Below are positions 337 through 41,041 of a DNA stretch of 64,000 bases, in pieces (positions within the stretch are counted from its first letter, which is position 1; every line of letters starts with the position of its first letter). The stretch is taken from contig DAOVIO010000001.1 in NCBI GenBank assembly GCA_030673645.1, forward strand, positions 35,507 to 99,506, written 5' to 3'. The position numbers and the translations under genes were made by a program. Origin of the DNA: Bacteroidales bacterium. Lineage in GTDB: Bacteria; Bacteroidota; Bacteroidia; Bacteroidales; GCA-2748055. The notes beneath the pieces are model-generated. The model did not search any database and had not been told where the DNA came from. It saw only the letters and a program-made list of their open reading frames with translations.

Positions 337-1338
337 ATGAATGAAGACATTTTATTAGGAAATGAGAAATTAAAGGCCATTGATATAAATACTCATCGTC
401 CGGGAGTAAATATATGGATTGACTTTATGCATATATACCAATTTAAACCATCAGAGGAGTTTTCGGTCCACGCGCATGAGAATTTAGAGTTTCATTATAT
501 TGCCAGCGGGGAAGGAGAAGTAGGTTTCTTGAAGAAAGGTTTTAACAAAGATAACGTTGTTAAATTGCCAGCCGTTGTTAAAAGTCAGAATAAACCATTT
601 CTTAAAGAGTTTCGGCTAAGTCAGCTTATTACTGAAAATAAAGAGTACATAATATACAAAATAAAGGCAGGTGATGCATTCCTAAACCCTCCGGGCCAAT
701 TTTGCTGGCAGAAGTCATCTCAGGAGAATCCATTGGTAGAATATGCCCTCAGGTTTTCTTTTGAAGAAGTCGAAGGAGATACCAGTACCGGTAAATATTT
801 TAAAAAGGAAAACAATATCATTAAAAAATTAATTTGTCAGGATATCATTCAGGTTACTAATGGGAACGAACAGTTAAAAAAAGTATTTGAGTCAGTTTTT
901 CTGGAAGCCAGATATGAAATGCCTGGATATATTACCAAGATTAAAAATGAAATTTATAATCTGATAATAATTATTGCCCGCGCTGCATGGAATAAGCGAC
1001 GTTTAAAATACTTCATTCCTGTAATTGATATTACACAGAAGAGATTAAAACTCATCGAAGATTATATCCAAGCCAACATCACTAATAATATTAAAATTGA
1101 AAATCTGGCTAAGAATGTGAATATGAGTGAGCGCAATCTTTCCCGGTTTGTAAAGGAAATCAAAGGCGTATCTGTACATAAATATATCATCCAAATAAAA
1201 GTTAAAATCGCGGTAGAACTTATATCAACCACGTCTAAGCCATTAGTCGAAATTGCCGTGCTTACAGGCTTTTCTTCTCCTTATCACCTGAGTAGTACTA
1301 TAAAGAGAATTATTGGCAAGAATCCATCCGAATTATAA
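337..1338 (+). CDS. AraC/XylS-family transcriptional regulator (N-terminal cupin-like sensor, C-terminal double HTH)
   Basis: The N-terminus has 'HAHENLEFHYIASGEGEV', which is cupin-like. The C-terminus has 'IENLAKNVNMSERNLSRFVKEIKGVSVHKYI...GFSSPYHLSSTIKRIIGKNPSE', a typical AraC HTH_18 signature. Confidence 0.85.
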   Translation: MNEDILLGNEKLKAIDINTHRPGVNIWIDFMHIYQFKPSEEFSVHAHENLEFHYIASGEGEVGFLKKGFNKDNVVKLPAVVKSQNKPFLKEFRLSQLITENKEYIIYKIKAGDAFLNPPGQFCWQKSSQENPLVEYALRFSFEEVEGDTSTGKYFKKENNIIKKLICQDIIQVTNGNEQLKKVFESVFLEARYEMPGYITKIKNEIYNLIIIIARAAWNKRRLKYFIPVIDITQKRLKLIEDYIQANITNNIKIENLAKNVNMSERNLSRFVKEIKGVSVHKYIIQIKVKIAVELISTTSKPLVEIAVLTGFSSPYHLSSTIKRIIGKNPSEL

Positions 1339-1635
1339 TTTTTGGCAAACTTATGTAAAACCTACTGTTTTTATTTCTGCTATTATTGCAACAATAGATT
1401 TTATGTAAATTGTCATTGACAAATCATGAATTTATTCTTGATGAAGTAGAATTTATATTTTTAAGGTAAACTCAATTTTGCTACTAGCAGTATTCTGATA
1501 GATAGCAATTGAAATATCAGGGCAACCCAATTTTGTTTGAAGAATGTTAATGAACTCCAATTGATTCTAGTGGTAGAAGGCTTTGATTTTAAAGATATTG
1601 AATATTAATAAGTAATATTTCTAATATAACTTATA

Positions 1636-3234
1636 ATGAGTAATATAGTTTATGACATGTTGGTGGTGCTTCTTTATTTTACAGTTATTATCGTAGCTGG
1701 GTATTTAGTAAGTAGAAAACATCGCAGTGACAGTGCCAGTGACTTTCTTACCGGGGGCCATACACTAAATTGGTTTAAAACCGGATTAACCCTTATTGCA
1801 ATGTCTATCGACACTGGGATTATGGGAGTAGCCGGAATCGGTTTTGTATGGGGGCTTGCCATTCAACCAAACGCCTTGAATTTGTGGATTGCCGCTCCTT
1901 TGGCAGCAATGTTTCTTATTCCCATCTATTGGAGGTCTAAAATTGTTACTACTCCCGAATTATTGGAAAAACGGTTTAATGTATACAGCCGGTCATTGTT
2001 TTCCGGATTGATGACGCTTTATAATATTATTGTTCTGGGAACCTCTATTTATTTAGGAGGGTTGATCCTTCAGACCATTTTTGATTGGAATTTACTTATT
2101 TCCTGTTCGGTCATCATGGTAGTGGTCGCAATTTATGTTATGATGGGTGGAATGAAAGCCGTTCTTACCATTAATATTTACCAGGCAGTATTTATAACAT
2201 TAACACTCATGACCGTTGGGATCACTTGTATTGTGAAGGTTGGTGGTCTTTCAGAATTGTTTAATAGTGATGTTCTTAGTGCTTCCGGGGCTCCACTGGC
2301 AAGCACTATGCTTCCTTTCGATTTAAGTTTAAAAAGTAAAATGTGGTATGCCATGCCATCCGGATTAATATGGGGCGCATTGGCTGGCACAGCTTGGATT
2401 GCCTGCAATTTTGGAATGGTGCAACGTCTATTAGCTGCAAAGGATGAAAAGAGTGCCCAGAAAGCAATTCTTTTTACCGGAGCCGGCCATGTGTTTACAT
2501 TCTTTTTCGCGTATGCCGTAGGTGTAAGTATCCATTTATTACAACCAGAACTTGCAAAAGCAGATGAATCATACATGTTTGCAATAATGAACTTTTTTCC
2601 TGTGGGTATAAGAGGTTTATTGATCGCGGGTTTAATCGCTTCATTAATATCAACCATCGATGGATTATTGACCTCATCAGGAACACTTATAACTACGGAT
2701 ATCTTTCTCAGATTTTTCAAGCCAAAAGCAGACGATAAGACTATTAAACGATTCGCCAGAATTGTACAGGCTGTTGTTCTATTAATAGCCTTTTTTATCA
2801 TTCCGGTTGCGGCTAAAGAGCAAACAGTTACCCGACTAATTCAGGACTTGATATCAATACCCCTGGGAGTTATGATTGCACTCTACCTTATTGGTGTTTT
2901 CAGTACAAGGGCTACACCATGGGCTGCATTTATTGGCGCCTTAACAGGAACTGTTGTTGCCATTTCAATTTATTTCTTTTTGCCTGAAATTAACTTTTTA
3001 AACAGGGGATTCTTTGGTTTCATAACCGTTGTTATAACGACTATTAGTCTTAGCTTTTTTGAAAAAAGACAAAGTATTGAAAGTCTTGAGAACCTTACCG
3101 TATTTACACTTTCAGATGTAAAAGGTCCCTGGGTGGGACAGGGGGCTTGGAGCAATCTATGGAAATGGATACTTGGGATCATTGTGGGTTGGTTTGTTTT
3201 AACTACCATATGGGAATTGCTAGTATCTCATTAA
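1636..3234 (+). CDS. Sodium:solute symporter (SSF) family sugar transporter
   Basis: 532 aa, very hydrophobic, roughly 13-14 predicted TM helices. The overall layout matches SSF/SGLT-type permeases and it sits next to a cytoplasmic GH130. Confidence 0.75.
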   Translation: MSNIVYDMLVVLLYFTVIIVAGYLVSRKHRSDSASDFLTGGHTLNWFKTGLTLIAMSIDTGIMGVAGIGFVWGLAIQPNALNLWIAAPLAAMFLIPIYWRSKIVTTPELLEKRFNVYSRSLFSGLMTLYNIIVLGTSIYLGGLILQTIFDWNLLISCSVIMVVVAIYVMMGGMKAVLTINIYQAVFITLTLMTVGITCIVKVGGLSELFNSDVLSASGAPLASTMLPFDLSLKSKMWYAMPSGLIWGALAGTAWIACNFGMVQRLLAAKDEKSAQKAILFTGAGHVFTFFFAYAVGVSIHLLQPELAKADESYMFAIMNFFPVGIRGLLIAGLIASLISTIDGLLTSSGTLITTDIFLRFFKPKADDKTIKRFARIVQAVVLLIAFFIIPVAAKEQTVTRLIQDLISIPLGVMIALYLIGVFSTRATPWAAFIGALTGTVVAISIYFFLPEINFLNRGFFGFITVVITTISLSFFEKRQSIESLENLTVFTLSDVKGPWVGQGAWSNLWKWILGIIVGWFVLTTIWELLVSH

Positions 3235-3526
3235 TTTATTGAGATGTTTTGAAAGTATCAGAAAATTTCATTTCAAAATCAGTTTATTAACTAAGTTTTT
3301 TTTAATTCACTTTTTTGGCAGCATTATATATTTTTAGGAATTAAGAAGTTTTAATATTTGCAAGTAGAAAATATACACCTATCAACTGTCGGTTTTTTTT
3401 TGTAAAATTCAAAAAAGGTACTTTCGATTTCGATAGGGTTTTATAATTCAGAAGCATTAGGATTGGAAAATTTTAGACCAAAAATTGCTTCAGAAAATCT
3501 TCCAATAGATAATAAAATTGAAATTG

Positions 3527-4531
3527 ATGAGTACTCAGCATGAAATAAAAGTGTCGAAAGACATAAATGGCCTTGAAAAAAGAGACGCTACGAAAATATT
3601 AAGCAGACATCCGCAAAATCCTTTATTGCATATTAGTGATTTTCCGGGATGTGCCCAGTTATACAATCCTTCACCCGTAATGTTTGGTGATGAAACGATA
3701 CTCTTAGTTTCTGTTGTCGATCACGCCGCTACCGATGGCTTTGGCAGAGATGTTGGACAGACACGAGTTGCTCGTAGTATGGATGGCGTCAATTTTACCC
3801 TTTCTGAAAAGAATTTTATCGAACTCCAAAGTGATGAATATCCTTATCCCCTCTATCATCACTTCATCGACAATCGGGTTACAAAAATTGATGACTGGTA
3901 TTATATCATTACACCTGTAATGGTGAAAGGATTCGATTCCCCTGTGGGAATGCTGGGGCGGACAAAAGATTTTGAATCTTACGAACGTATCGATATTATT
4001 ACCCAGCCTAAAAACCGGGGAGCATCTCTCTTTCCTGTAAAAATTAATGGCAAGTACTATAAATTAGATCGTCCTGGTGGCGGTGATGGTGGAGATGGTG
4101 ACATATGGATAAGTGCCTCAACAGATTTAGTACACTGGGGAGAGTTTAAACCGGTAATTGCAGCAGGATATCGTTTCTGGAATGTTCAAAAAATAGGACC
4201 AACTCCACCGATAAAGACGAAGGACGGTTGGCTGGATATTATCCACGGTGTATTCTCTCCGGCCGGAGGAACCTACTATTATATTGGTGCAATTTTGCTT
4301 GATCTTGAAGAACCCTGGAAAGTTATCGGTAAAACGAACAGCTATCTGATGATGCCACAGGAGGAGTATGAAAAACATGGAAATTGCGACAATACAATTT
4401 TTCCCTGTGGAGCCATTCCAAAATACGACATTGATGAACTATGGCTGTACTATGGTGCAACAGATTTCTCAATTTGTCTGGCAACAGGTTCCTTAAGTGG
4501 TATTGTTGATGCTTGTAAAAAAGGCCTGTAA
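3527..4531 (+). CDS. GH130 family beta-mannoside phosphorylase-like enzyme, cytoplasmic (no signal peptide)
   Basis: GH130 blocks are present: 'FIDNRVTKIDDWYYI' (EDPR-like block with the catalytic Asp), 'KNRGASLFPVKINGKYYKLDRP' (both phosphate-site Arg residues retained), 'DGWLDIIHGV' and 'LWLYYGATD'. The ORF track starts at a TTG (3518); the first ATG is at 3527. Confidence 0.72.
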   Translation: MSTQHEIKVSKDINGLEKRDATKILSRHPQNPLLHISDFPGCAQLYNPSPVMFGDETILLVSVVDHAATDGFGRDVGQTRVARSMDGVNFTLSEKNFIELQSDEYPYPLYHHFIDNRVTKIDDWYYIITPVMVKGFDSPVGMLGRTKDFESYERIDIITQPKNRGASLFPVKINGKYYKLDRPGGGDGGDGDIWISASTDLVHWGEFKPVIAAGYRFWNVQKIGPTPPIKTKDGWLDIIHGVFSPAGGTYYYIGAILLDLEEPWKVIGKTNSYLMMPQEEYEKHGNCDNTIFPCGAIPKYDIDELWLYYGATDFSICLATGSLSGIVDACKKGL

Positions 4532-4620
4532 CATTCGGGCTTAATATTCATCCTTTAAAAAAGTTCAAAGCTATCTATCCCATTTTGGATAAAAATGAAA
4601 TCTCAACAAATCCTGAAATT

Positions 4621-6426
4621 ATGCCAAAAATCACCCAAGTAAAATGGATCTCAATTCTAATCCTGTTTTCAATATTGATTGCTTCATGTGGGGAAAAGGA
4701 AATACCTGAAAATAAATTTATTTACGCTAAAGATGGTCGCTTGTTTTTTCCTGATGGCAAGGAATTGTCCCTTTGGGGCGTAAACCTGCAACCTTGCTTG
4801 TCCTGGGAGTACAATAGCTTGTTTAAATTAATTGGAGTTCCATTAAGAGCAGATAGTCTTAAACTGGCAACCGATAATGCCCTGGATGAGATCCAAAAAA
4901 TGAACTGTGATTTAATCCGTTGTCATCTGACACCTTCCGACTTTACCGATAACGAGGGAAATCTGGTTGAAACGGTTTATCTTGACATCCTTGACTATAT
5001 GGTTGCTGAAGCTTCTAATAGAGGAATTTACTCTTACATTACCTTTCTAAATACGAATATGGGTTTCGATATTGATGTTGATGAACCCAAAGATCATACC
5101 CCAAATTTTGTCGAAAATTCCTTTGGAGGTAAACTGGACCGTAAGCATCTTATTGAAAATGAGGACATAGTTAATAAATCAAAAAATTATATAAGCCAAC
5201 TTTTAAACCGGGTAAATCCTTATTTAAAAACAAGCTACAAAAATACTCCAGCCATTGCTGTCTGGGAAATTAGCAATGAGCCTACCTATTACTCCTATAA
5301 GCAAGTGAAAGAAACTCCCTATTATGAGGAGTTTAAATCGTGGGCATTAGGACAGGGATTGGAAGATACTGAAGAGGATTACGCCTCATATCGATATGAT
5401 CTTGTATTGAACTACATCAATGATATGTATGATGTAATACGCGAGACGGGAGCGGTACAGCCTATTGTTTGGAATTGTAACTGGAATAAAATGATCAATG
5501 GTCACGAAGAAATTTTTGATGCCATTGGGATCTCTAAAGTTGAGGTCGTGTCATTTTGTAACTATCCCGGACAAAGTGTTTGTAAAAAACCATATACCAA
5601 AAATCCTGTTGACCTTTCAGGTTACGACTTTTCATCCTTTTTAAAGAATTCATATACCAAAGAAGATTGGTATGGTTGGGCATTGCGGCCCGACTTTATG
5701 AAAAAGGCTAAGGTCGCCTATGAGTTTGAGATTTTCTACAATCAGAGTGCCTATTTATACCCTGCACAAGCATCATTCTTCAGGGCAATGGGTGTGCAAA
5801 TGGCAAGTATGTGGCATTATAGTATGCCAAGGTACGCACCTTACAGAAATGGTTCACATCATTTAAGTCTGACCAGTACACCCCCAAAAGCAGCTTCTTA
5901 TGCTGTTGCCGGAGAGTTATTTAGGTCCTTACCATTGTATCACGAATATGATACCGTTTCAACTACAGAAAAAGTGACTGAAAATTATATGTATTCCTAT
6001 GAAAAGAATATTAGCATTTATAGCTCAGATGAAATGTATATCCATTCTGGGCCTGTTGATGATAATGAGTTGCCTGAGCCTTCCGGGAATGTAAAAAAAG
6101 TGATTGGCTTCGGAAACTCTCCCCTTGCTAAATACGATGGGAATGGTATTTATACTATAAATATTCAGGATAATTCGATTGAAATTGAAATAGAACCGAA
6201 TACAGAACAATTAAAACCTCTTTGGGGAAAGGACTTTCTTGTTGGTCTCGTAACTCAACTAGATTATCTGACTCATCATTCATTTGAATTAAATCTTAAG
6301 GGCTGGGATGCTTCCAATTCTGTTATTTATCGATTGGAGAATGATGTTAAAACCAAAATAGAAGTTCTGGATAATTCACTCCTTTCATTTCAGGCTATTC
6401 CAGGAAAATATCTTATTGAAAAATAA
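4621..6426 (+). CDS. Lipoprotein, unassigned clan GH-A-like (beta/alpha)8 glycoside hydrolase plus C-terminal beta-sandwich; paralogue A of a three-member family
   Basis: The lipobox 'LIASCG' follows the ATG at 4621 (the track starts at TTG 4585). It carries 'DLIRCHLTPSDF', 'VWEISNEP' (NEP acid/base-type motif), 'KVEVVSFCNYPGQSV' and 'AKVAYEFEIFYNQS' (candidate nucleophile Glu). It is collinear with 10007.. and 30996... Confidence 0.6.
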   Translation: MPKITQVKWISILILFSILIASCGEKEIPENKFIYAKDGRLFFPDGKELSLWGVNLQPCLSWEYNSLFKLIGVPLRADSLKLATDNALDEIQKMNCDLIRCHLTPSDFTDNEGNLVETVYLDILDYMVAEASNRGIYSYITFLNTNMGFDIDVDEPKDHTPNFVENSFGGKLDRKHLIENEDIVNKSKNYISQLLNRVNPYLKTSYKNTPAIAVWEISNEPTYYSYKQVKETPYYEEFKSWALGQGLEDTEEDYASYRYDLVLNYINDMYDVIRETGAVQPIVWNCNWNKMINGHEEIFDAIGISKVEVVSFCNYPGQSVCKKPYTKNPVDLSGYDFSSFLKNSYTKEDWYGWALRPDFMKKAKVAYEFEIFYNQSAYLYPAQASFFRAMGVQMASMWHYSMPRYAPYRNGSHHLSLTSTPPKAASYAVAGELFRSLPLYHEYDTVSTTEKVTENYMYSYEKNISIYSSDEMYIHSGPVDDNELPEPSGNVKKVIGFGNSPLAKYDGNGIYTINIQDNSIEIEIEPNTEQLKPLWGKDFLVGLVTQLDYLTHHSFELNLKGWDASNSVIYRLENDVKTKIEVLDNSLLSFQAIPGKYLIEK

Positions 6427-6451
6427 TTAAGTTTTATCATAATTCTGAGCT

Positions 6452-8050
6452 ATGTCAGTGCGTAAACAAGTAATCAGTATCCTTCCTGTAATTTTTCTTT
6501 CAACAGGATGTAGTGAATCAATTAAACAAGACCTCAAACCCAATGTGGTAGTTATGTATATCGATGATTTGGATTTTGATGAACTAGGCTATTATGGTTC
6601 GATAAATCTAACTCCGAATATTGATAAGCTTGCCAGTGAAGGAATGAATTTCACACGTGCATATGTTACATCTACTGTATGCACACCCAGTCGGTATGGT
6701 CTTGTAACCGGTAATTATGCATCCCGGTCGATAGCCATTCAGGAAAATCCAGCATCCACTTGGCGAAATCGACTTTATCCGCCCGGAACCGATGCAAATG
6801 TTCATTTTAATTGTATTCTGACTCCTGGAGAAAAGACCTTTGGTAATTATATGCATGAAGCGGGTTATGTGACTGGTATGGTTGGGAAATGGCATATGGG
6901 CGGTAGCGCAAAAGGAGAATATATCTATAAAGATAGTGACGGCAATTTTACAAAGCCTAAAATACCCTTGAATAAGGAAGAAAGTTATGACAGTCCCTAC
7001 AACCAACAGTCTATTAAAGAGCATTACAAAACCATAACCAATTATATTAAAGAAAATTTCGGATTCGATTTTGTTGATGGTTTTTTTGAACAGAATGCTT
7101 CTGGTCTGCGGCAATCAGGATATCCGGAAATTTATCAAAAACATAATCTGGAATGGATAACCGCCAACGGACAGAAATTTATTAGAGAAAACAAGGATAT
7201 ACCATTCTTTCTATATTATGCTTTAACCCTGCCACACGGCGAACAAGGTGGGTTTAAAGAAAATATTGAGTCCTCCGAATTGACAATTACTCCTGGTGGA
7301 AGAATTGATAAAATGCCTGAAACCGGTATGCCTGATAGAAACAAGCTATCTGAACGCTGCAAAGCAGCAGACTTAAAACCGGCATCGATGGCCATGATGT
7401 ATGTGGATGATGCAGTGGGAGCACTTTTAAATACCTTAAAAGAAGAGGGACTGGAAGAAAATACGATTGTAATGTTTATCAGCGATCATGGAAATTATGC
7501 AAAACTGGCACTTTTTGAAGGTGGGGTCAGGGTACCATTTATTGTTAAATGGCCGGGGATTGTAAAAGCCGGATCATCAAATGACCAGATTATTGCAAAT
7601 ATTGATGTTACTCCAACCATTTTAGAAATTTCTGAGTCTAATAAAGAAATTAGTTTTGATGGAATTAGTTTTTTATCACTTCTAAAAGGAAGCAAGGAAT
7701 CCATACGTGAAGCCCTGTTAATTGAAGTAGGGTATGCAAAGGCAATAGTCACGAAAGAATCCAAGCTTACCTACATCCGGTTTCCTGAAGAAGAAAAGGA
7801 AACTATTGAAGGTCATGGAGGAATAGACGGTATCAATTACAATGCCTCAAACGCAACATTTGCAAAACGTCAAAAATCCAATTATCCTGGTTATTGGGAT
7901 TTAAACCAACTATATGATCTGGTAAACGATTCTGCAGAGCAGAAAAATATTTATTCCGATAACCCTGAAAAGCTTGAGGGATTGGAAGAACTTATGAAAA
8001 GGGAGCTAGATAAATTGCCTCATACTTTTGGCGAAATAAAAGTAAAATAG
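6452..8050 (+). CDS. S1-family formylglycine-dependent sulfatase (Cys-type), lipoprotein
   Basis: Carries 'VVMYIDDLDFDE', the FGly motif 'CTPSRYGLVTGNY', 'GKWHMG' and 'FISDHGN', plus the lipobox 'LSTGC'. Confidence 0.9.
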   Translation: MSVRKQVISILPVIFLSTGCSESIKQDLKPNVVVMYIDDLDFDELGYYGSINLTPNIDKLASEGMNFTRAYVTSTVCTPSRYGLVTGNYASRSIAIQENPASTWRNRLYPPGTDANVHFNCILTPGEKTFGNYMHEAGYVTGMVGKWHMGGSAKGEYIYKDSDGNFTKPKIPLNKEESYDSPYNQQSIKEHYKTITNYIKENFGFDFVDGFFEQNASGLRQSGYPEIYQKHNLEWITANGQKFIRENKDIPFFLYYALTLPHGEQGGFKENIESSELTITPGGRIDKMPETGMPDRNKLSERCKAADLKPASMAMMYVDDAVGALLNTLKEEGLEENTIVMFISDHGNYAKLALFEGGVRVPFIVKWPGIVKAGSSNDQIIANIDVTPTILEISESNKEISFDGISFLSLLKGSKESIREALLIEVGYAKAIVTKESKLTYIRFPEEEKETIEGHGGIDGINYNASNATFAKRQKSNYPGYWDLNQLYDLVNDSAEQKNIYSDNPEKLEGLEELMKRELDKLPHTFGEIKVK

Positions 8051-9434: not shown

Positions 9435-9568
9435 AAAAAATGAATATATGCTTAGAATATTTTCAATACATTCCTTGTTATTTCGCAAGGACATTAATGC
9501 ATTCATTTGCTTATAACAGAATTATGAAACAGAAGCATATTTTATCAATTTAAATTCTAATTATCTGA

Positions 9569-9805
9569 ATCTCGGTAAATCCACTATTTTCACAGGAAGT
9601 TACAGGTGAATTGAAAAAATGGCATAAGGTCACAATTAAATTTAACGGTTCTTTAACCAGTGAGACAAAAACCGATAATCCATTTTTGAATTCTGGCACA
9701 ATCGGCTGGGAACAAATCTTTGGCGAGATTTTATATTCTCAAATGGTGCTATTTTTAAGGACTTTTCAAAATACTGCTATTATAAGTCTTCTTTTGCTAA
9801 TATAA
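9569..9805 (+). pseudogene. Relic of a DUF5060-type N-terminal domain (gene fragment); the 64-aa ORF at 9611..9805 is probably not a real gene
   Basis: The in-frame read-through 'SVNPLFSQEVTGELKKWHKVTIKFNGSLTSETKTDNPFLN' resembles the conserved start of DUF5060 domains (GH140-type proteins). A stop lies immediately upstream, and similarity is lost after 'PFLN', giving way to low-complexity sequence. Confidence 0.35.
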
Positions 9806-10006
9806 ACACCTCAGCTATTTAATGGACTGTATTTTTACCAATTATCGACTCTTCGAGCATAATTAAAATTGGCTGTTTTTTAAATCTCATTGTAATACCA
9901 AATTACTAATTTTATGAAATTCGATAAGGTCTGAGTTTTTACCATAGAAAATATTTCTTTGGTTCATACTGGATTTGAATTTTAAAAGGAGTTAACAATT
10001 AGTGAT

Positions 10007-13000
10007 ATGAACTCAATTTTCAAGACTTGTAGAAAATTTAATAAAGTAATTTATAATGGGATTAATCCTAAATACCTATTTGTTACCATAATACTGGTCC
10101 TGGCATCTAATTTATTTGCACAAGATGATTTTGTATATGTTCAGGATGGAAGATTGCTCTATCCCAATGGAGAGGAGGTAGCTCTCATGGGGGTAAATCT
10201 CCAAACTATGATTTCCTGGGAGTACAATGCGAAATTGAAGGATGCAGGAATTCCTAAGGATGCGGAAGTCTGGAAAAGAATGGCTGATAAAAGCCTGGAT
10301 GAGCTTGAAATAATGGGTGCCAATTATATACGTGTACATCTTACACCCTCTGATTTTACCGATGCCAATGGAGGCCTGATAGAAACAATTTATCTCGATT
10401 TGTTAGATTATACGACTGCAGAAGCAGCCAAACGTGGCATCCGTTTGTGCTATGCATTCATGAATTATATGGGTGGCTATGAAGTTGCTTCTTCCTTTAT
10501 GAGAACCTCTTATCTGGAAGCAAAATCTATATCTTCAGCAGATGAAAAATATTATCATAAGGCTTTGTTGATGTTTGATAATGATTATCTGGCTGCATCT
10601 AAAAACTATATACGAAACTTATTAAACAGGGAGAACCCTTATAGCAATAAGGCATACAAGTCGGATACCAACATTATTGTTTGGGGTATTCAAAACGAAC
10701 CAACGTATTTGGATTACAATCAGCTAAAATTATACACAGAAGAATATTCCAGATTTCAGATCTGGCTGACCGATAATGGTCTGACTGAAAATAATGGTGC
10801 TAACTATCCCTCCTATCGCAAACAAAGGGTGAAGGGATACATAAATGAAATTCATGACGAGATAAGAAGTGCCGGATCTGTTCAGCCTGTGGAATGGAGC
10901 CTGAACTGGCACAGATTCCGTAATGGTCGTGAAGATGTATTTACAGCGGTAGCAGAATCAAAAGTTGAGGTGGTATCGTTCTGTACCTATCCAGGTCAAA
11001 GTGTTGCCACACAGTTAGGTGGGGGGAGCTATTTGAATTTCGATGGTGATCTTTCTACCTACGACTTTAGCGATTGGTTTAAAAGCGGCTACAATGAATT
11101 ATCATGGTATGGCTGGCTTCTTACTAATGATTTTAGCTCCAAGGCAAAAATTGTATATGAGTTTGAAAGTTTTTATAACCAGAGTTCATATATATATCCT
11201 GCTATTGCTGATCTACAGCGTTCTTTAGGGGCACAGGCAGCTGCCATGTGGCACTATAGTCAACCTGATTATGCTCAGTACAACAGTGGATCGCATATTT
11301 TGAATCTTAAATGTACCCCCAATAAAGCTGCAGCCTTTGCGGTGGCTTCGAAAATATACCAGAATACCCAGACAGAACAAGCTTATCATCCAAACTCAAC
11401 AACCGAGTGGCAAACAGATAATTATATGTATTCATTCTCTAATGATATTGCCATTTATAGCGATGATGAATCATACTGCTATTCGGCAAGTGTAAGTCCG
11501 GGACAATTACCATCACCTCCCATCAATCCGAAATATATAATGGGTATTGGTAATTCAGAGCTGGTGGAATACTCAGGAAACGGGAACTACCTAATAGAAT
11601 TAGTTGGCGATACACTGGACCTAAATATCCAACCTGATGTCAGTTATAACTACTCGCTATCCTCAAGAGAAGATGCCTTAATAACTAATTTGCATTATGA
11701 CACTATCCATGATCTTAAGTTAAAATTCTGGGAAAAGTACGGAAAGTATGAAATTTTCTCGGTTGAAGAAGGCAAGTATGAACTGGTATCTACCGCTTTT
11801 TATTTAGACAGTTTGAGTGTCAAACCGGGAAAATACAAAATTTTTATTGCCGACACTTTATATTCAGCAGAAAGTGAAGCTCCTACTTCTCCGGCAAATT
11901 TAGCTGTTGGAAATGTAAAGCCAACCAAAGTAGATCTTAGCTGGGAAGCTTCCTCAAACGCTTATATTGAGAAATATATTGTATTTGTGGATGGTGTAGA
12001 AGACATAGCTGTTTTTGCGCCAGCAACGAGCGTTACCATCGATGGTCTGACATGTGGAAATTCCCATAACTTAAGTGTGAAAGCCGTTAGTGGTGCTGGA
12101 AATGAATCACCGCTTAGTGCAATTGAAACTGTTACAACCGATATTTGCGATATTATTGCTCCCACGAAGCCCACTAATCTCGTTTCTTCTAACATTACAC
12201 CCAACAGTATTAAGCTTTCCTGGCAACAGTCAAGTGACAATATTGAAGTATGGGAATATGAAGTTTATATAAACGGTAAAAAAAAACTTGAGGTTCTTTA
12301 CCCCGATACAAGCATTAATATAAGTGGATTATACTGTGAAACCGACTATGAACTGTCCGTAAAGGCAAAAGATGAGGCAGGTAATTTATCACCTGCCAGT
12401 GAGATTCTGGCTGTCAGTACTATTGCATGCTCAGGATTAATTAGCTATCAGGAATGGAGAGGTATTGAAGGCTGGGAATTATCAGATTTAACATCTCATC
12501 CTGATTATCCTGAAAATCCTGACACCACCGGATATGTAACTTCCCTCCAAATCCCGACTAACTATGGATATAATTACGGCCAGAGGTTTTTGGGAAGTAT
12601 AATCGCACCCGAAACAGGGACCTATTATTTCTGGATTGCATCGGATAATGCTGGTCAGCTATGGCTAAGCCCTGATAATACATATGATAATAAATTATTG
12701 ATCGCTTATAACAATAGCTGGACCAATTACCAGGAATGGAATAAATTCTCATCTCAAAAGTCGGCAGGAAAAAACCTTATCAAGGACCAAAAATATTATG
12801 TTGAAGTTATAATGAAGGCTGCTGCCGGTGGAGACCACCTAACTGTAGGCTGGAGAAAGCCATCAGATGGTATAGGTACTGAACCCTTTGAAATAATTTC
12901 TGGAAGAGTATTAGGTCCTTACCAGGACCATAGGGCTCCTACAATTCCTGTAAATCTCCTTGCGTCCAACATTACAGAAACCAGTCTGGATTTAAATTGG

Positions 13001-14257
13001 GATAGTTCAACAGACGATTCCGGGCTGGCCGGATATTATATTCTCCAAAATGATGAACTTATCGATACTCTTTTAACTACATCCATTTCCATTACTGGTC
13101 TTACAAGCGGTTTATCCTATGACTTTGCTATTAAAGCTTTTGATATATATGGCAATGTATCAAAATCAAGCATGGTTGAGACTGTGGTGACAACTGACAA
13201 TGAGGAACCATCAGCACCCGGAAACCTTGTTGCAACGGAAATTACAGGAAATAGTTGCAAACTAAGCTGGGATTCCTCAACAGATAATGCAGCAATTGAA
13301 GCTTATGATATCTATGAAAATGCTGTGCTTAAAAGCTCGGTAACAGATACTTTTTCTGTCATAACTGGTTTAGAAATGGTTGTTTCTTATACTTTTACAG
13401 TAAAGGCCAGGGATGCAGCCGGAAATAGTTCCAATGAAAGTAGTGTGGTGGTTCTTACCCCGGATACAGAAGCGCCATCTACTCCTTCCAACCTAACTTC
13501 ATCGAATATTACAGGGAATAGCTGCTCACTTAGCTGGCAAGCATCAAATGATAATATTGATGTCGCAGAATATGAGGTATTCAAAGATGGTGAACTGGAA
13601 AAAAGCGTTTATTTTACTTATACTGATATATCTGAATTAACAAATGCCATCTCGTACACCTTTACCGTCCGGGCGAAAGATGTAGCCGGAAATGTTTCAG
13701 AAGAAAGTAATGCCATTATTGTAAATACTCTTGATACTGAAGCCCCAACAACTCCAGTAAATCTTAGGGCTTCAAATATATCACTGTCTGGTGTGGATCT
13801 AAGCTGGGAAGCTTCAACCGATAATCTGGGAGTAACTGCCTATGAGGTTTTCAAAAATAATGAGTTTGAAACATTAGTAAGCAATACTAATATATCTATT
13901 ACAGGATTGCAGGTAAAAACAAATTACGAATTCCAGGTAAAGGCATTGGATGCTGCCGGAAATATTTCTATTGCAAGTAATTCTGTCAGCGTTTTTATAG
14001 ATAATACCTCAGCGTCATTCCTTCAGGCTTCCGATAATAATATCCTACTCTATCCCAATCCAGCCAAGGATTTTGCCTACATAAAGAATGCTTTAGAAGG
14101 AATTGTTTCGGTATTGTCAGTGGATGGAAGAATTATGTTGAGTAAAGATTATAAAAGAGGCGATTTAATTGATTTAAGTTCGCTTACACCTGGTTTTTAT
14201 ATCTTAAGATTATCGGGAAATGGAATGATTAACTTGTGTTTTTCAATTGAAAGATAA
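10007..14257 (+). CDS. T9SS-secreted modular enzyme: GH-A-like catalytic module (paralogue B) - FN3 x2 - PA14 - FN3 x4 - T9SS C-terminal domain
   Basis: The N-terminal ~620 aa are collinear with 4621.. and 30996.. ('YIRVHLTPSDF', 'VWGIQNEP', 'KVEVVSFCTYPGQSV', 'AKIVYEFESFYNQS'). There are six FN3 units ('AP..P.NL....IT..S..LSW..S.DN....YE'). The PA14-like block is 'GYNYGQRFLGSIIAPETGTYYFWIASDNAGQLWLS...YYVEVIMKAAAGGDHLTVGWRKP'. The CTD is 'LLYPNPAKDFAYIKN...GFYILRL'. Confidence 0.75.
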   Translation: MNSIFKTCRKFNKVIYNGINPKYLFVTIILVLASNLFAQDDFVYVQDGRLLYPNGEEVALMGVNLQTMISWEYNAKLKDAGIPKDAEVWKRMADKSLDELEIMGANYIRVHLTPSDFTDANGGLIETIYLDLLDYTTAEAAKRGIRLCYAFMNYMGGYEVASSFMRTSYLEAKSISSADEKYYHKALLMFDNDYLAASKNYIRNLLNRENPYSNKAYKSDTNIIVWGIQNEPTYLDYNQLKLYTEEYSRFQIWLTDNGLTENNGANYPSYRKQRVKGYINEIHDEIRSAGSVQPVEWSLNWHRFRNGREDVFTAVAESKVEVVSFCTYPGQSVATQLGGGSYLNFDGDLSTYDFSDWFKSGYNELSWYGWLLTNDFSSKAKIVYEFESFYNQSSYIYPAIADLQRSLGAQAAAMWHYSQPDYAQYNSGSHILNLKCTPNKAAAFAVASKIYQNTQTEQAYHPNSTTEWQTDNYMYSFSNDIAIYSDDESYCYSASVSPGQLPSPPINPKYIMGIGNSELVEYSGNGNYLIELVGDTLDLNIQPDVSYNYSLSSREDALITNLHYDTIHDLKLKFWEKYGKYEIFSVEEGKYELVSTAFYLDSLSVKPGKYKIFIADTLYSAESEAPTSPANLAVGNVKPTKVDLSWEASSNAYIEKYIVFVDGVEDIAVFAPATSVTIDGLTCGNSHNLSVKAVSGAGNESPLSAIETVTTDICDIIAPTKPTNLVSSNITPNSIKLSWQQSSDNIEVWEYEVYINGKKKLEVLYPDTSINISGLYCETDYELSVKAKDEAGNLSPASEILAVSTIACSGLISYQEWRGIEGWELSDLTSHPDYPENPDTTGYVTSLQIPTNYGYNYGQRFLGSIIAPETGTYYFWIASDNAGQLWLSPDNTYDNKLLIAYNNSWTNYQEWNKFSSQKSAGKNLIKDQKYYVEVIMKAAAGGDHLTVGWRKPSDGIGTEPFEIISGRVLGPYQDHRAPTIPVNLLASNITETSLDLNWDSSTDDSGLAGYYILQNDELIDTLLTTSISITGLTSGLSYDFAIKAFDIYGNVSKSSMVETVVTTDNEEPSAPGNLVATEITGNSCKLSWDSSTDNAAIEAYDIYENAVLKSSVTDTFSVITGLEMVVSYTFTVKARDAAGNSSNESSVVVLTPDTEAPSTPSNLTSSNITGNSCSLSWQASNDNIDVAEYEVFKDGELEKSVYFTYTDISELTNAISYTFTVRAKDVAGNVSEESNAIIVNTLDTEAPTTPVNLRASNISLSGVDLSWEASTDNLGVTAYEVFKNNEFETLVSNTNISITGLQVKTNYEFQVKALDAAGNISIASNSVSVFIDNTSASFLQASDNNILLYPNPAKDFAYIKNALEGIVSVLSVDGRIMLSKDYKRGDLIDLSSLTPGFYILRLSGNGMINLCFSIER
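11876..12423 (+). repeat. Intragenic tandem FN3-encoding repeats (2 units, ~270 bp each)
   Basis: Units begin 'EAPTSPANLAVGNVKPTKVDLSWEAS' and 'IIAPTKPTNLVSSNITPNSIKLSWQQS'. Confidence 0.7.
12929..14000 (+). repeat. Intragenic tandem FN3-encoding repeats (4 units, ~270 bp each)
   Basis: Units begin 'HRAPTIPVNLLASNITETSLDLNW', 'EEPSAPGNLVATEITGNSCKLSW', 'TEAPSTPSNLTSSNITGNSCSLSW' and 'TEAPTTPVNLRASNISLSGVDLSW'. Each ends '...F.VKA.D.AGN.S..S'. Confidence 0.75.
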
Positions 14258-14271
14258 AACTTGATAAAATA

Positions 14272-16971
14272 ATGATTAATACTAAATCAATACCAACTTT
14301 TAAAACAGGAATAAGTTGTTTGGTTCTTCTGCAAGGAGTTTCTCAAATGTCAATAAAAGCAGCAGCTCCTCCCACCGAGAAACCTAACATCATAATTATT
14401 TATGCCGATGATCTGGATGCAGACGAACTTAATCACACAGTTAATGATATTGATATATGGCCAACATTTAACGGTGTTAAAAGTCTTGGCATTGACAGCT
14501 ATAACAAAACTTTTAGCCCATTGCTTTTGACTCCCAATATCGATTCACTGGCAAACGGAGGTATGATGTTTACGCATTTCTATGTTAATGCTACAGTTTG
14601 TACCCCTAGTCGCTATAGCTTACTAACCGGACGTTATGCAACAACTGGAGAGGAATTACTCGACCAGTATCCAGCCGGTACACATGCCACACTCGATTGG
14701 AGTCCTGCTATTATCAGAAGTGAAAGCCTCCTGCCAAAAGAACTTAAAAAAGCAGGATACCGTACGGGTATTGTTGGCAAGTGGCATAATACTCCTGATG
14801 AGGCAAATTTGCCCGTCTCATCATCAAAAATTGAGAAAAACTCTCATCCAAGCTATGAAGAAGCGCTGGAAGAGGATGCCTTTCTCAAAAATCATCAGCA
14901 AACAGGAGTCAACTATTTAAGTGAAGGTTTTGGATGGGATGTGGTCGAACGAATGGAGTGGGGAAATTCAATTGTAAACCTGGACTGGATGTGTGAAGGG
15001 GCGCTTAATTTTATCGAAGAGAGTAAGGATACTTCCTTTTTCCTTTATTTATCCTTACCGGTGCCCCATGGTCAATATCAATACATTTACAATTCTTTAG
15101 ATGTCCTGGATAGAAGGGTTTGTGCAAATGGAATCCTGCCGGATAATTATTCCATATTGCCCTCAGATAGTGATGTATACAGAAGAATCGATTCAGCAGG
15201 TGTCCCCAGAGAAAACGCTATGGCTACACATATGGACGATTATGTAGGTGCGGTTATGAATAAACTGGAGGAACTTGGAATAGGGGAGAATACCCTTATT
15301 ATTTTTACAAGCGATCACGGCAACCGTGGAAAAAATAGTTGTTATGAAGGAGGAGCCAGGATCCCTATGTTTATTTACTGGCCCGGTAAGATTGATCCAG
15401 GTACAACAAACAGTAGCCTGATTGGCAATATCGATATTTCAGCAACCTTACTGGATCTGGTAAGGATCACGCCTCCCGAGGATATGTCGCGCGACAACCT
15501 TAGCTTTTTACCTCAATTATTAGGAGATCCCGAACCTCTGGATTGGAGGAAAAGTATGATGATTGAAGCAGGGAATTCAAAAGCCATTGTTACAAAAGAA
15601 TACAAGTATATCGCCAACAGGGTCACTCCCGAAATTGCGCAAAGTATGGCTGAACAACCGAAAGTGGTATATTGGTCGGGGGTTGATCACCACAATTACA
15701 ACACCGAATTCATGTATAAAGGCTATTGGGATGCAGATCAACTATATGATCTGGAGAATGACCTTTACGAACAAAAAAACCTTATGGGCAATCAGGGATA
15801 CAAAGATATGCTGATAGAAATGAAATCGGAGCTTGCCAGTTATGTTTCAAAACTGCCTCATTCATTTGGCGAGTTTAGCGAAGGGGGCTCAGTTCTTTCC
15901 GCTTTTAATGCTCCGACAAATCTTATTGCTTTGAATATTACTCCTACTAATCTTGATTTAAAATGGGATGCATCAAGCCATGACATTGGTTTGGTGGGAT
16001 ACGAAGTATATAAAGACGATGTTTTAGAGACCTTCGCTACAGGAACATTTGTATCCATTACGGGATTAGCTCTGGATTCAACTTACAAATTTAAGCTAAA
16101 AGCCCTTGATGTAACAGGCACATATTCATCAGAAAGCAATGAGGTGACCATTAAAACACGATATCCGGATGAGGAAAGTCCGTCAGCTCCTTCCAATCTT
16201 ATTGCTACTGAAATTACAGCTACTGGATGTGAACTATCCTGGGAGCCTTCAAACGACAATATAGGTGTTATCGCTTACGAGGTTTATAAAGATGGTGAGT
16301 TTTTGACCACAACTTCAGGAACATCCATTTCAATTAGTGGTTTGGAGAGTTTCCAAACTTACATTTTTACAGTTAAGGCAAAGGATTTTGATGGTAATAT
16401 TTCCACGGAAAGTAACAGGTTTACAATAATAACTTCTGATAATATTCCTCCAACAGCGCCGTCTAATTTTACTGTCTCAAATATTACCGGAAACTCTTGC
16501 GGACTTGGTTGGTCGGCTTCCACTGATAATGTGGGTATAGAAGAATACGAAATTTACAGGGATGGTGTTCTAGATACTATCGTTTACTTCCCCCATGTCA
16601 CAATTAGTGGTTTAAGTAATTCCACAACCTATGTTTTCACGGTTAAGGCAAAGGATGTAGCCGGAAATCTTTCAGAAGAAAGTAGTGAATTAATTGTGAC
16701 TACCCTTGATTCGGTAATTATTGGAACTCAAAAAATTATTGTACAGGATGGAATAGAAATATACCCAAATCCAGTGGGAAGTATGCTATATATCTCAAAT
16801 CTTGAAAGTGGTTTGCTCAGTATTCATTCTTTCGATGGCAGGCAGGTGTTAAGTGCTGATCACAGGCCTGGTCTGGCAGTTGATGTATCCTCATTGTCGT
16901 CGGGAGTTTATATTCTTGAGATTTCAGCTAACAGGAAAAACTACTTATTGATAAAAAGTGGAGCAGAATAG
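14272..16971 (+). CDS. T9SS-secreted S1 sulfatase (Cys-type) fused to FN3 x3 and a T9SS C-terminal domain
   Basis: The sulfatase core has 'IIIYADDLDADE', 'CTPSRYSLLTGRY', 'GKWHN' and 'FTSDHGN'. It ends 'KLPHSFGEF', like 6452..8050. Three FN3 units and the CTD 'IEIYPNPVGSMLYISN...GVYILEIS' follow. Confidence 0.85.
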   Translation: MINTKSIPTFKTGISCLVLLQGVSQMSIKAAAPPTEKPNIIIIYADDLDADELNHTVNDIDIWPTFNGVKSLGIDSYNKTFSPLLLTPNIDSLANGGMMFTHFYVNATVCTPSRYSLLTGRYATTGEELLDQYPAGTHATLDWSPAIIRSESLLPKELKKAGYRTGIVGKWHNTPDEANLPVSSSKIEKNSHPSYEEALEEDAFLKNHQQTGVNYLSEGFGWDVVERMEWGNSIVNLDWMCEGALNFIEESKDTSFFLYLSLPVPHGQYQYIYNSLDVLDRRVCANGILPDNYSILPSDSDVYRRIDSAGVPRENAMATHMDDYVGAVMNKLEELGIGENTLIIFTSDHGNRGKNSCYEGGARIPMFIYWPGKIDPGTTNSSLIGNIDISATLLDLVRITPPEDMSRDNLSFLPQLLGDPEPLDWRKSMMIEAGNSKAIVTKEYKYIANRVTPEIAQSMAEQPKVVYWSGVDHHNYNTEFMYKGYWDADQLYDLENDLYEQKNLMGNQGYKDMLIEMKSELASYVSKLPHSFGEFSEGGSVLSAFNAPTNLIALNITPTNLDLKWDASSHDIGLVGYEVYKDDVLETFATGTFVSITGLALDSTYKFKLKALDVTGTYSSESNEVTIKTRYPDEESPSAPSNLIATEITATGCELSWEPSNDNIGVIAYEVYKDGEFLTTTSGTSISISGLESFQTYIFTVKAKDFDGNISTESNRFTIITSDNIPPTAPSNFTVSNITGNSCGLGWSASTDNVGIEEYEIYRDGVLDTIVYFPHVTISGLSNSTTYVFTVKAKDVAGNLSEESSELIVTTLDSVIIGTQKIIVQDGIEIYPNPVGSMLYISNLESGLLSIHSFDGRQVLSADHRPGLAVDVSSLSSGVYILEISANRKNYLLIKSGAE
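15901..16710 (+). repeat. Intragenic tandem FN3-encoding repeats (3 units), same repeat family as in the upstream gene
   Basis: Contains 'ESPSAPSNLIATEITATGCELSW' and 'IPPTAPSNFTVSNITGNSCGLGW...FTVKAKDVAGNLSEES'. Counted by eye, the last unit is roughly 55-60% identical to FN3 unit 5 of 10007..14257. Confidence 0.7.
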
Positions 16972-30995: not shown

Positions 30996-32741
30996 ATGAA
31001 AAAAGGGATATCAATAACGGTCATTTTATTATTTATAATTAGCCAGGTGGTTTTCAACCAGGATAATTTTATTTATAATGAAAATGGAAGATTATATCAT
31101 CCAAATGGAGAAGAAGTTGCTCTTTGGGGAGTTAACCTTCAGCCAATGCTTTCATGGGAATACAGGCTTTTAAAAGGAGCAGGTGTACAGAAAGATGCTG
31201 AGTCAATTAACAGGGCCACCGATGAAAGTCTTGATGAACTTGAACTCTTAGGTTGCAGACTAATTCGCTGTCATCTCACCCCGGCAGATTTTACAGACGA
31301 TAAAGGCAATCTGGTTGAGACAGTATTTCTGGATGCTTTGGATTATATGGTAGCTGAAGCTGCCAAAAGAAACATCTATCTGTACATTACTTTTATAAAC
31401 CATATGGGAAGTGGAGAAGTGAAAAATTCATTTATGCAGGGGTATAAAAAAGACCGGGTCAAGTGGATTGCAGATAAAGAATTCGTAAAAAAATCAAAAA
31501 ACTATGTTACGCAACTTCTCAACAGGGAAAACAAGTATTCAAAATTCCAGTACAAAGCAGATTCTGCTGTCGCTGTATGGGAAATTATCAATGAACCTGA
31601 CTATTTAAAATACGACACCATTCTAAGTGGTCCATATGCAAAGCAATACAAAAAATGGCTTAAGCGAAATAAGTTAAAGGATGGTAAATTCACATTTTTT
31701 AAATACAGGCAGGAAATGGTATTAAACTATATCAATGAAATGTATAATGTGGTGCGCAAAACAGGTGCCAAACAACCCGTTTCCTGGTGCTGCAATTGGC
31801 ACAGAATGATCATTGGTCATGAAGATGTCTTTGATGCCATTTCACAATCAAAGGTGGAGGCTGTATCATTCTGTAATTATCCCGGACAAAGCGTTTGCAA
31901 ACATCCTTATTATGAAAATCCTCAAGATCTTACAAAATATAATTATTCCGACTGGTATGTAGATTGTTATGAAAAGGAAGAGTATTATGGATGGACGTTG
32001 AAACCGGAATTTCAAAGCAAAGCTAAACTGGTATATGAATTTGAGACATTTTATAATCAAAGTGCTTATTTATATCCTGTAATGGCCGACTTCTTCAGAT
32101 CTATGGGAGTGCAAATGGCTGCAATGTGGCAATATAGCATGCCTGCATATGCAGAGTACAGGGGAGGTTCTCATGTGCTCAACATCAAGTGTACTCCTGC
32201 CAAGGCTGCATCTTTTGCTGTTGCGGGAAAGATATTTGAAGAAACTTCCCTGCTTCAACCCTATCATATAGAATCAACTACAGAATGGCAGACAAACAAG
32301 TATATGTATTCCTATAAAAAGAATGTGAGTGCCTTCAGTGACGATAATTATTTTTACCATTCTGCGGATATTGATAATGATTTTAAACTTCAAGCTTCTT
32401 CCTCTGTAAAAGAGATCTTTGGATATGGAAATTCACCCCTGGTTAATTATACAGGAACTAGTAATTATATAATTAAAATATCAGATAAAGAATTGGATAT
32501 TACTATTCATCCTGATGTCAGATACCGAAGAGAGCTATGGAAACTTCACAATATGGACTGGGGCCCTGTCACTACTTTGGATAGCAGCGAGAATCGCACC
32601 TTAAAATTGAATCTTAACAACTGGAGTAAAGGAAAGTATACTCTATATGAAATCAAAGATGGTGTGCGTCAGAAAAAAGGTACAATGAATGAACTTACAA
32701 TGTTTTTGAATCCCGGGCACTATCTGGTAGTTAAAGAATAA
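30996..32741 (+). CDS. Secreted unassigned clan GH-A-like (beta/alpha)8 hydrolase plus C-terminal beta-sandwich; paralogue C
   Basis: Has a signal peptide, 'RLIRCHLTPADF', 'VWEIINEP', 'KVEAVSFCNYPGQSV' and 'AKLVYEFETFYNQSAYLYP...MWQYSMPAY'. It is collinear with 4621.. and the N-terminus of 10007... Confidence 0.6.
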   Translation: MKKGISITVILLFIISQVVFNQDNFIYNENGRLYHPNGEEVALWGVNLQPMLSWEYRLLKGAGVQKDAESINRATDESLDELELLGCRLIRCHLTPADFTDDKGNLVETVFLDALDYMVAEAAKRNIYLYITFINHMGSGEVKNSFMQGYKKDRVKWIADKEFVKKSKNYVTQLLNRENKYSKFQYKADSAVAVWEIINEPDYLKYDTILSGPYAKQYKKWLKRNKLKDGKFTFFKYRQEMVLNYINEMYNVVRKTGAKQPVSWCCNWHRMIIGHEDVFDAISQSKVEAVSFCNYPGQSVCKHPYYENPQDLTKYNYSDWYVDCYEKEEYYGWTLKPEFQSKAKLVYEFETFYNQSAYLYPVMADFFRSMGVQMAAMWQYSMPAYAEYRGGSHVLNIKCTPAKAASFAVAGKIFEETSLLQPYHIESTTEWQTNKYMYSYKKNVSAFSDDNYFYHSADIDNDFKLQASSSVKEIFGYGNSPLVNYTGTSNYIIKISDKELDITIHPDVRYRRELWKLHNMDWGPVTTLDSSENRTLKLNLNNWSKGKYTLYEIKDGVRQKKGTMNELTMFLNPGHYLVVKE

Positions 32742-32789
32742 CGAATAAAGCCAGGTTTTGAATATAAATTTTTAAAGAATTCTTGAAAT

Positions 32790-41023: not shown

Positions 41024-41041
41024 AAGAACAAAACTACTTGT

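Follow-up and report, generated by a model that had tools for sequence, protein, structure and literature searches.

The closest described parallel to the locus discussed here is found in the use of sulfated alpha-1,3-mannan by two Bacteroidota, Ochrovirga pacifica and a Polaribacter sp. In their polysaccharide utilization loci (PULs) an S1 sulfatase works together with a glycoside hydrolase (GH) of family GH195, as OpSulf1 and OpGH195 in the former and as PbSulf1-GH195 in the latter (PMC13063451). OpSulf1, which provided the first structure of subfamily S1_51 (9FVT), is an endo-6S-mannan sulfatase acting on the polymer; its Polaribacter orthologue PbSulf1 is a sulfatase-GH fusion exported by T9SS (the type IX secretion system), and in this characterised system the sulfatase has to precede the action of the GH (PMC13063451). 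A second group of relatives is that of the hybrid PULs (for the concept, see PMC10792170) and their multimodular T9SS-exported enzymes, such as ChiA of the chitin PUL of Flavobacterium johnsoniae (PMC5127042) and the cellulases of 'Ca. Paraporphyromonas polyenzymogenes' (PMC5831590). Here we describe two adjacent genes, 10007 (gene 1) and 14272 (gene 2), in a stretch of 64,000 nt of a Bacteroidales contig, hereafter the window, that encode a predicted glycanase and a sulfatase, each ending in an FN3 array and a T9SS-type C-terminal domain (CTD). Our reading is that the surrounding locus is a hybrid PUL for a sulfated, probably mannan-type glycan with a T9SS-exported glycanase/sulfatase pair, and we put its probability at about 0.6.

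The likeness to the sulfated alpha-1,3-mannan system is substantial. In both cases a Bacteroidota PUL pairs an S1 sulfatase of the same structural subgroup with an endo-type GH, the Polaribacter enzyme is T9SS-exported, and the logic is to desulfate and then to cleave; the sulfatase and the GH of O. pacifica are encoded by separate genes, as they are in the window. The differences are equally clear. The partner in the window is a GH5-like barrel of clan GH-A, whereas theirs is the GH99-like GH195; the window has no GH92; its enzymes each carry their own FN3 array and CTD, and a PA14 domain is present. The sulfatase is only about 29% identical to OpSulf1, and the relatives of the GH130 and GH5-like enzymes in the window point to beta-mannosides, not to alpha-1,3-mannan. 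With neither GH92 nor a GH99-like/GH195 enzyme in the window, and a GH of a different fold family, the locus is not the published sulfated alpha-mannan PUL. With the hybrid PULs it shares large proteins made of a catalytic module, FN3 or Ig-like modules and a type-A CTD, encoded in a SusC/D locus, together with extracellular action ahead of import (PMC5127042, PMC5831590, PMC10792170). It differs from them in having a sulfatase among the secreted enzymes, and in having two adjacent cargo genes with related tails.

The domain content of both proteins was taken from Pfam and NCBIfam scans, and nine FN3 units were delimited, A1 to A6 in gene 1 and B1 to B3 in gene 2. What was computed are the domains and catalytic residues, the scores of the CTDs, the structures nearest to the modules, gene synteny and how old the FN3 divergence is; secretion, endo mode, order of action and substrate are what we infer from them. 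The features of the pair are the following.

10007..14257, + strand: gene 1, 1416 aa; putative signal peptide (by eye), GH5-like glycoside hydrolase, two FN3 units, PA14, four FN3 units, T9SS type-A CTD
10121..11881, + strand: GH5-like catalytic module (aa 39-625), (beta/alpha)8 barrel with C-terminal beta-sandwich; predicted acid/base E231 (QNEP), predicted nucleophile E385 (YEFE)
11882..12424, + strand: FN3 units A1 (11882-12142) and A2 (12161-12424) of gene 1, from Pfam and unit delimitation
12539..12865, + strand: PA14 domain of gene 1 (aa 845-953; PF07691, 34 bits, cut-off 24), within the insert 12425-12937 between A2 and A3
12938..14002, + strand: FN3 units A3 (12938-13195), A4 (13208-13462), A5 (13475-13732) and A6 (13745-14002) of gene 1
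14048..14254, + strand: T9SS type-A CTD of gene 1 (aa 1348-1416; matched aa 1348-1405; PF18962 30.0 bits, cut-off 27; TIGR04183 31.1, cut-off 23)
14272..16971, + strand: gene 2, 899 aa; putative signal peptide (by eye), S1 sulfatase, three FN3 units, T9SS type-A CTD
14362..15903, + strand: sulfatase catalytic module (aa 31-544), closest to S1_51 OpSulf1; D46/D47, C110 (CTPSR), R114, K170, H172, H266, D348, K354
15904..16707, + strand: FN3 units B1 (15904-16161), B2 (16180-16437) and B3 (16450-16707) of gene 2
16759..16968, + strand: T9SS type-A CTD of gene 2 (aa 830-899; matched aa 830-890; PF18962 35.4 bits, cut-off 27; TIGR04183 35.6, cut-off 23)

The two open reading frames (ORFs) are separated by 14 nt, lie where the initial annotation of this DNA had placed them, and are an operon-like pair in a locus of Bacteroidota type with about 38% GC. 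The architectures proposed in that annotation were borne out as well. Protein 1 has six fn3 stretches split two plus four by the PA14 domain, and its GH module is recognized by motifs, by a profile comparison with the PDB, and by AlphaFold2 and Foldseek; the suggestion that the PA14 insertion is likely to bind carbohydrate is supported. Protein 2 has a Pfam Sulfatase match over aa 38-397 (147.9 bits, 5e-43), followed by SGSH_C, three fn3 stretches and Por_Secre_tail. The pair is present in at least five independent public assemblies and is therefore not an assembly chimera. In the public databases the two products carry generic names: that of gene 1 shares a 90%-identity cluster with MCK4921748.1, annotated only as 'fibronectin type III domain-containing protein', and that of gene 2 is MCK4921749.1, a 'sulfatase-like hydrolase/transferase', both entries being derived from a 'Bacteroidales bacterium' metagenome-assembled genome (MAG). 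Upstream of gene 1 there is a non-coding gap of 572 nt (9435-10006), compared with the 14 nt inside the pair, a layout consistent with a separate promoter for the two genes.

The catalytic module of gene 1 has no Pfam match in a scan of aa 39-625, even at E values up to 1 and with PF00150 included. A database search found 104 homologues with identities of up to 58% over the full module. The majority stand alone, with a length of about 600 aa. In a few of them a CTD is joined directly to the module (P0001, P0020 and L017 in our numbering) or there is an N-terminal PF06452 domain, and precomputed matches to PF00150, or matches to PF26410 flagged as weak, are found on some of them only. N230-E231-P232 and Y384-E385-F386 do not vary among 44 aligned members, nor do Arg, His, Tyr and Trp positions that are characteristic of clan GH-A. 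When compared with the PDB, the family profile retrieved only GH5 beta-mannanases and mannosidases (best 8GF3, 8e-20), apart from one marginal other match (E 0.005). AlphaFold2 predicts (pLDDT 95) a (beta/alpha)8 barrel followed by a C-terminal beta-sandwich, and the best Foldseek matches of this model (8gf3, 1uuq, 4lyr and 3pz9) are mannan-active GH5 enzymes, with identities of 12-16%.

The module thus has its nearest relatives, by profile and by fold, in the GH5 beta-mannanases and mannosidases, such as BlMan5_7 (8GF3), CmMan5A (1UUQ), RmMan5B (4LYR) and the PF26410 'GH5_mannosidase' family. It shares with them the (beta/alpha)8 fold and the conserved Arg, His, Asn-Glu-Pro acid/base and Glu nucleophile. 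It differs from them in its low identity, with the sequence match limited to barrel strands 3-4, in an extra C-terminal beta-sandwich of about 190 aa, and in scores that stay below the Pfam thresholds for Cellulase/GH5. Since there is no match to the Pfam model PF00150, we call it 'GH5-like clan GH-A' rather than a member of GH5; its motifs and its model predict a glycoside hydrolase with a retaining mechanism.

In the sulfatase of gene 2 the formylglycine motif, C110-T-P-S-R, is intact, and this motif together with D46/D47, K170, H172, H266, D348 and K354 is invariant or nearly so among 36 sulfatase homologues. A PDB search with the module gave 9FVT at 2.6e-58 and the runner-up at 6e-31, a gap of 27 orders of magnitude in E-value. 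In agreement with this, the AlphaFold2 model (pLDDT 92.9) matched 9fvt_A in Foldseek with a TM-score of 0.82, as opposed to about 0.6 for every other sulfatase. From its sequence the enzyme could belong either to S1_51 itself or, possibly, to a sister subfamily.

The initial annotation had proposed that this sulfatase would desulfate the polymer outside the cell. The nearest characterised relative, OpSulf1/PbSulf1, is endo-acting on the polymer and has a T9SS domain in Polaribacter, and by this analogy the proposal that the gene 2 enzyme works outside the cell is supported. A different view would be that the enzyme is exo-acting or specific for oligosaccharides, and that it sits tethered to the cell and trims what the glycanase releases at the surface instead of attacking the intact polymer first. 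Most characterised carbohydrate sulfatases are indeed exo-acting, and an identity of 29% to an endo-acting enzyme is modest. We nevertheless consider this view unlikely, given that the model has a TM-score of 0.82 to OpSulf1 and of about 0.6 or less to any exo-sulfatase structure, and that the homologous sulfatase of the characterised system has to act before the GH (PMC13063451).

Exported sulfatases had also been described as unusual, and in numbers they are. Among the 120 closest sulfatase homologues listed, the window protein is the sole carrier of FN3 or CTD modules, the other 119 having neither, and in 1.1 Mb of related loci, with 106 sulfatase ORFs, only the gene 2 product has a CTD or exceeds 700 aa. 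A T9SS-exported, polymer-active sulfatase coupled to a glycanase is, however, rare but already documented: with the PbSulf1/OpSulf1 precedent (PMC13063451), the arrangement in the window is less novel than had been supposed.

As for the export signals, both CTDs are located at the extreme C-terminus and score above the curated cut-offs of two models, TIGR04183 and PF18962, in agreement with what the initial annotation had expected of the C-terminal regions. The N-terminus of gene 1, read by eye, has a clear h-region ending in …LFA|QD. That of gene 2 could be taken for a lipoprotein signal with Cys16 as the lipidated residue; this was rejected by eye, as the Cys comes too early and the residue at -3 is Gly. 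It had further been argued that the sulfatase must receive its formylglycine before crossing the outer membrane. The intact motif agrees with a modified enzyme, and the maturases work on a chain that has not yet folded, before or at its export by Sec, periplasmic sulfatases being modified in the same way; export by T9SS therefore imposes no special constraint.

One could still ask whether the CTDs are non-functional remnants, both proteins being periplasmic like ordinary PUL enzymes. The gene 1 CTD is barely above the Pfam cut-off (30.0 against 27), and T9SS genes were not seen in the window. This explanation is nevertheless very improbable in our view: both domains pass two independent curated cut-offs, five CTD-bearing proteins are clustered in the locus, the CTD-bearing neighbours are kept in related MAGs, and long FN3 spacer arrays would make little sense on periplasmic enzymes.

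The history of these FN3 arrays is less straightforward. The initial annotation had assigned the FN3 units of the two genes to one family, had quoted a pair at about 55-60% identity, and had suggested module exchange or duplication between the neighbours. The quoted pair, A5 and B3, is indeed the most similar of all, with 59% identity in protein and 64% in DNA, pairwise identities among the nine units ranging from 33% to 59% at the protein level. The longest DNA repeat in the two genes is 99 nt at 73%, and the identical residues of A5 and B3 use the same codon in 26 of 51 cases, compared with 21.0 expected from local codon usage (p about 0.1). With synonymous sites saturated and no long DNA repeats, recent gene conversion or duplication between FN3 units is excluded.

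The units were further compared with 346 outside FN3 units from the 120 best database matches to the FN3x3-CTD region, a search that missed the query's own protein, so that closer FN3 relatives may exist. The outside units come from 'chitodextrinase', GH18 chitinase and other proteins of Firmicutes, Bacteroidota and further groups. Seven of the nine window units have an outside counterpart that is at least as similar to them as any other unit in the window. Mean identity is 42.5% within the window and 43.0% across the two genes, against 41.6% between units of unrelated proteins. A neighbour-joining tree of 308 units does not unite the nine as a clade: to contain all of them a split needs at least 125 units, and an exclusive family of window units can be ruled out. 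By sequence they are of the generic, ubiquitous bacterial "chitinase-A1/chitodextrinase" type, so the claim of one family holds only in this wide sense. A5 and B3 are sisters in the tree with 46% bootstrap, A3 and B1 are paired in 44% of bootstraps, and A5 and B3 are reciprocally nearest among the 354 other units in 72% and 46% of bootstraps.

Other comparisons keep an older connection in play. A3-A4-A5 are colinear with B1-B2-B3 at 49% identity over 267 aa, while database matches covering three units reach at most 41%. The two CTDs are 38% identical, the highest value among the five CTDs of the window (other pairs 18-29%). The sulfatase orthologue (62%) and the GH5-like relatives (47-48%) in the nearest MAG and in the syntenic metagenome contig L001 have neither FN3 nor CTD. 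We read these sequence comparisons to mean that both genes gained their FN3 and CTD tails in this lineage, long ago, and possibly from one ancestral cassette of three FN3 units and a CTD. Module exchange between the neighbours is thus weakly supported, and is ancient at best.

It is also conceivable that there was no exchange at all. Each gene could have taken its FN3 array and CTD independently from tails circulating among the T9SS cargo genes of Bacteroidota, the similarity of A5 and B3 having come about by convergence towards the consensus of the family, or by chance, given how many comparisons were made. The lack of a clade, the equally close outside units and the cross-gene mean at the level of unrelated proteins would all be expected, and an unrelated BNR/sortilin-like protein in the syntenic locus L068 also carries an FN3 and CTD tail. 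Set against this are the reciprocal and sister relationship of A5 and B3, the colinear block of three units, and the greater similarity of the two CTDs. On balance we regard independent acquisition as a serious possibility, somewhat short of even odds.

The pair is embedded in a larger locus, whose upstream core and paralogous gene pairs are given below.

337-1338, + strand: AraC regulator, upstream core of the locus (337..4531)
1636-3234, + strand: Na+/solute symporter, upstream core
3518-4531, + strand: GH130, closest to the beta-1,4-mannoside phosphorylases TM1225, UhgbMP and RaMP2
4585..8050, + strand: paralogous GH5-like/sulfatase pair; GH5-like ORF 4585-6426 (44% to the gene 1 module), sulfatase ORF 6452-8050 (34% to the gene 2 module)
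30996..34184, + strand: third GH5-like/sulfatase pair; GH5-like ORF 30996-32741 (45-50% to the other two), sulfatase 32790-34184

From left to right the window contains the AraC regulator, the symporter, the GH130, the GH5-like gene 4585 and its sulfatase 6452, a GH10-like gene, the T9SS pair, a xylose-isomerase-like TIM protein, six sulfatases, a 952-aa CTD protein, the GH5-like gene 30996 and its sulfatase 32790, two more CTD proteins, and two SusC/D pairs with fasciclin-domain proteins. There are thus nine sulfatases, three paired with GH5-like genes and six further ones. Identities among the three GH5-like paralogues are 43-50%. Every one of them has a sulfatase gene directly behind it; the sulfatase 32790-34184 belongs to a different subfamily. 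The pair 4585-6426/6452-8050 has no FN3 or CTD; its products have lipoprotein-type signals (…LIASC and …LSTGC, by eye), and that of ORF 30996-32741 has a plain signal peptide (by eye). The differing signals of the three pairs (lipoprotein, T9SS and plain signal peptide) suggest that the same two-step chemistry takes place in several compartments.

Several other genes of the locus deserve a brief account. The divergent GH10-like protein (8055-9434) matches PF00331 with 46.5 bits and has only weak matches to xylanases in the PDB; relatives are found in syntenic loci of Flammeovirga agarivorans and a Bacteroidales MAG (L003 5658-7010 and L068 10057-11463), and it seems to be one of the conserved components of the pathway. 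The 952-aa CTD protein (28119-30977) has no Pfam catalytic domain; over aa 206-389 phmmer finds a weak resemblance (1.6e-4) to GH51 alpha-L-arabinofuranosidases, and its orthologue in a Bacteroidales MAG (L071) is 67% identical and 1417 aa long. On the minus strand, 36129-40082 encodes a CTD protein of 1317 aa with weak LTD/PKD matches only and no catalytic domain found in Pfam scans, of which a related Bacteroidales MAG (L005/L071) has a 67% identical counterpart and a Mariniphaga MAG (L007) a 32% identical one, adjoining GH5-like genes. In the 440-aa product of 34315-35637 the only domain match is a Por_Secre_tail that falls short of the cut-off (23.6 bits, cut-off 27); a 63% identical orthologue is present in L005/L071. 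In the region 41021-56342 the SusC/SusD pairs 43320/46587 and 51296/54483 are interleaved with the fasciclin-domain proteins 41021, 47926 and 49695, which may be surface glycan-binding proteins. As listed, ORF 46587-48074 shares about 150 nt with ORF 47926-49689, so that one start codon was probably mis-called. The window closes with a respiratory gene cluster unrelated to the PUL (57304-63869), made up of a multihaem cytochrome/TPR/HEAT protein (57304-59652, minus strand) and, on the plus strand, a Rieske protein (59951), cytochrome b (60423) and a multi-domain cytochrome c (61827).

The GH5-like family is by no means limited to this lineage. A scan of one genome per species found it in 72 loci of Bacteroidota, Verrucomicrobiota, Kiritimatiellota, Lentisphaerota, Planctomycetota and others, and neighbouring genes were counted within 8 kb. 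In none of the 72 loci is a homologue fused to FN3 or PA14, and in only one (L017) is a CTD joined directly. An orthologous sulfatase (at least 45% identity) is found near the GH5-like gene in seven loci and a GH130 (68-92% identity) in 17, across phyla; the full set of GH130, GH5-like enzyme and sulfatase was seen in Bacteroidota, Verrucomicrobiota and Kiritimatiellota. The core of AraC regulator, transporter, GH130, GH5-like enzyme and sulfatase is syntenic in contigs L001 and L068. The GH130 itself is conserved to an unusual degree across phyla: the tblastn identities of 68-92% to its counterparts beside GH5-like genes (L008, L009, L013, L068, L032, L038 and others), in Bacteroidota, Verrucomicrobiota (Puniceicoccaceae and Opitutae) and Kiritimatiellota, compare with 32-50% for the adjoining GH5-like genes. 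More distant GH5-like members (37-41%) are found in Alistipes, Rikenellaceae and Bacteroidales MAGs from gut or rumen (L014, L015, L020, L024, L027, L030, L033 and L035), where no sulfatase or GH130 was found within 8 kb of the GH5-like gene.

From these data a working order of events can be proposed, its export and maturation steps following general knowledge of T9SS and S1 sulfatases and its later steps following homologies. Both proteins would be synthesised with an N-terminal Sec signal and exported by Sec, and Cys110 of the sulfatase would be converted to formylglycine, before or during this export, by a maturase encoded elsewhere. Both would then fold in the periplasm, where the T9SS would recognise their type-A CTDs, and would end up free or anchored at the cell surface, with the FN3 arrays presumably serving as spacers and the PA14 domain as a likely glycan-binding module. 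Outside the cell the S1_51-like sulfatase would, by analogy with OpSulf1/PbSulf1, desulfate internal residues of the intact polymer, and the GH5-like retaining glycanase (E231, E385), aided by PA14, would then cut the backbone to oligosaccharides. These could be imported through the two SusC/D pairs of the locus, and their breakdown completed by the lipoprotein and periplasmic paralogue pairs and the six further sulfatases; beta-mannoside products would be taken up by the symporter and phosphorolysed by GH130. As the nearest relatives of the sulfatase, the GH5-like enzyme and the GH130 are all mannan-related, their sequences suggest that the substrate is probably a sulfated mannan-type glycan. 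A fucoidan PUL was also considered and is unsupported, with no GH29/95/107/141/168-type matches in Pfam scans of the window ORFs.

A number of observations weigh against this reading of the locus. The sulfatase is only 29% identical to OpSulf1 in the structural alignment, so its membership in S1_51 and its endo mode are both extrapolations. The substrate of OpSulf1 is an alpha-mannan (alpha-1,3 in the S1_51 precedent), as opposed to the beta-mannosides of the GH5-like and GH130 relatives, and the gut and rumen loci lacking sulfatases imply that the specificity of the GH5-like family need not involve sulfated substrates. On the side of export, the signal peptide of gene 2, read by eye, has a short hydrophobic core (ISCLVLLQGV), and the 64-kb window has no T9SS core genes and no gene for a formylglycine-generating enzyme. 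As to the tails, the cassette link comes from short domains with a bootstrap of at most 46%; and with the nine units not forming a clade and outside units being as close, the FN3 units of the two genes, taken as a whole set and with the exception of A5/B3, largely fail to cluster together.

A bolder version of our reading can be put forward tentatively, and we think it more doubtful than probable. In this version the T9SS pair and its paralogues, one pair with lipoprotein signals and one periplasmic, would make up a three-compartment 'desulfate-then-cleave' pathway for a hitherto uncharacterised sulfated beta-mannan-type (or other) glycan. The specificity of the unclassified GH5-like family, present in at least five phyla, would be new and would rely on an S1_51-like endo-sulfatase dedicated to it, and the FN3 and CTD tail would have been copied between the neighbours, moving both first-step enzymes outside together.

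Extracellular endo-acting sulfatases are gatekeepers for the microbial use of sulfated algal glycans, and few of them have been characterised. If the hybrid PUL reading is right, the locus would provide a second case, distinct in architecture, of T9SS export of a sulfatase that is coupled to a glycanase. What it chiefly offers as leads is an uncharacterised family of GH5-like enzymes, together with that family's conserved link to an S1_51-like sulfatase and a GH130. Current concepts are left unchallenged by these findings; their value would lie mainly in enzyme discovery for carbon cycling in marine and sediment environments.

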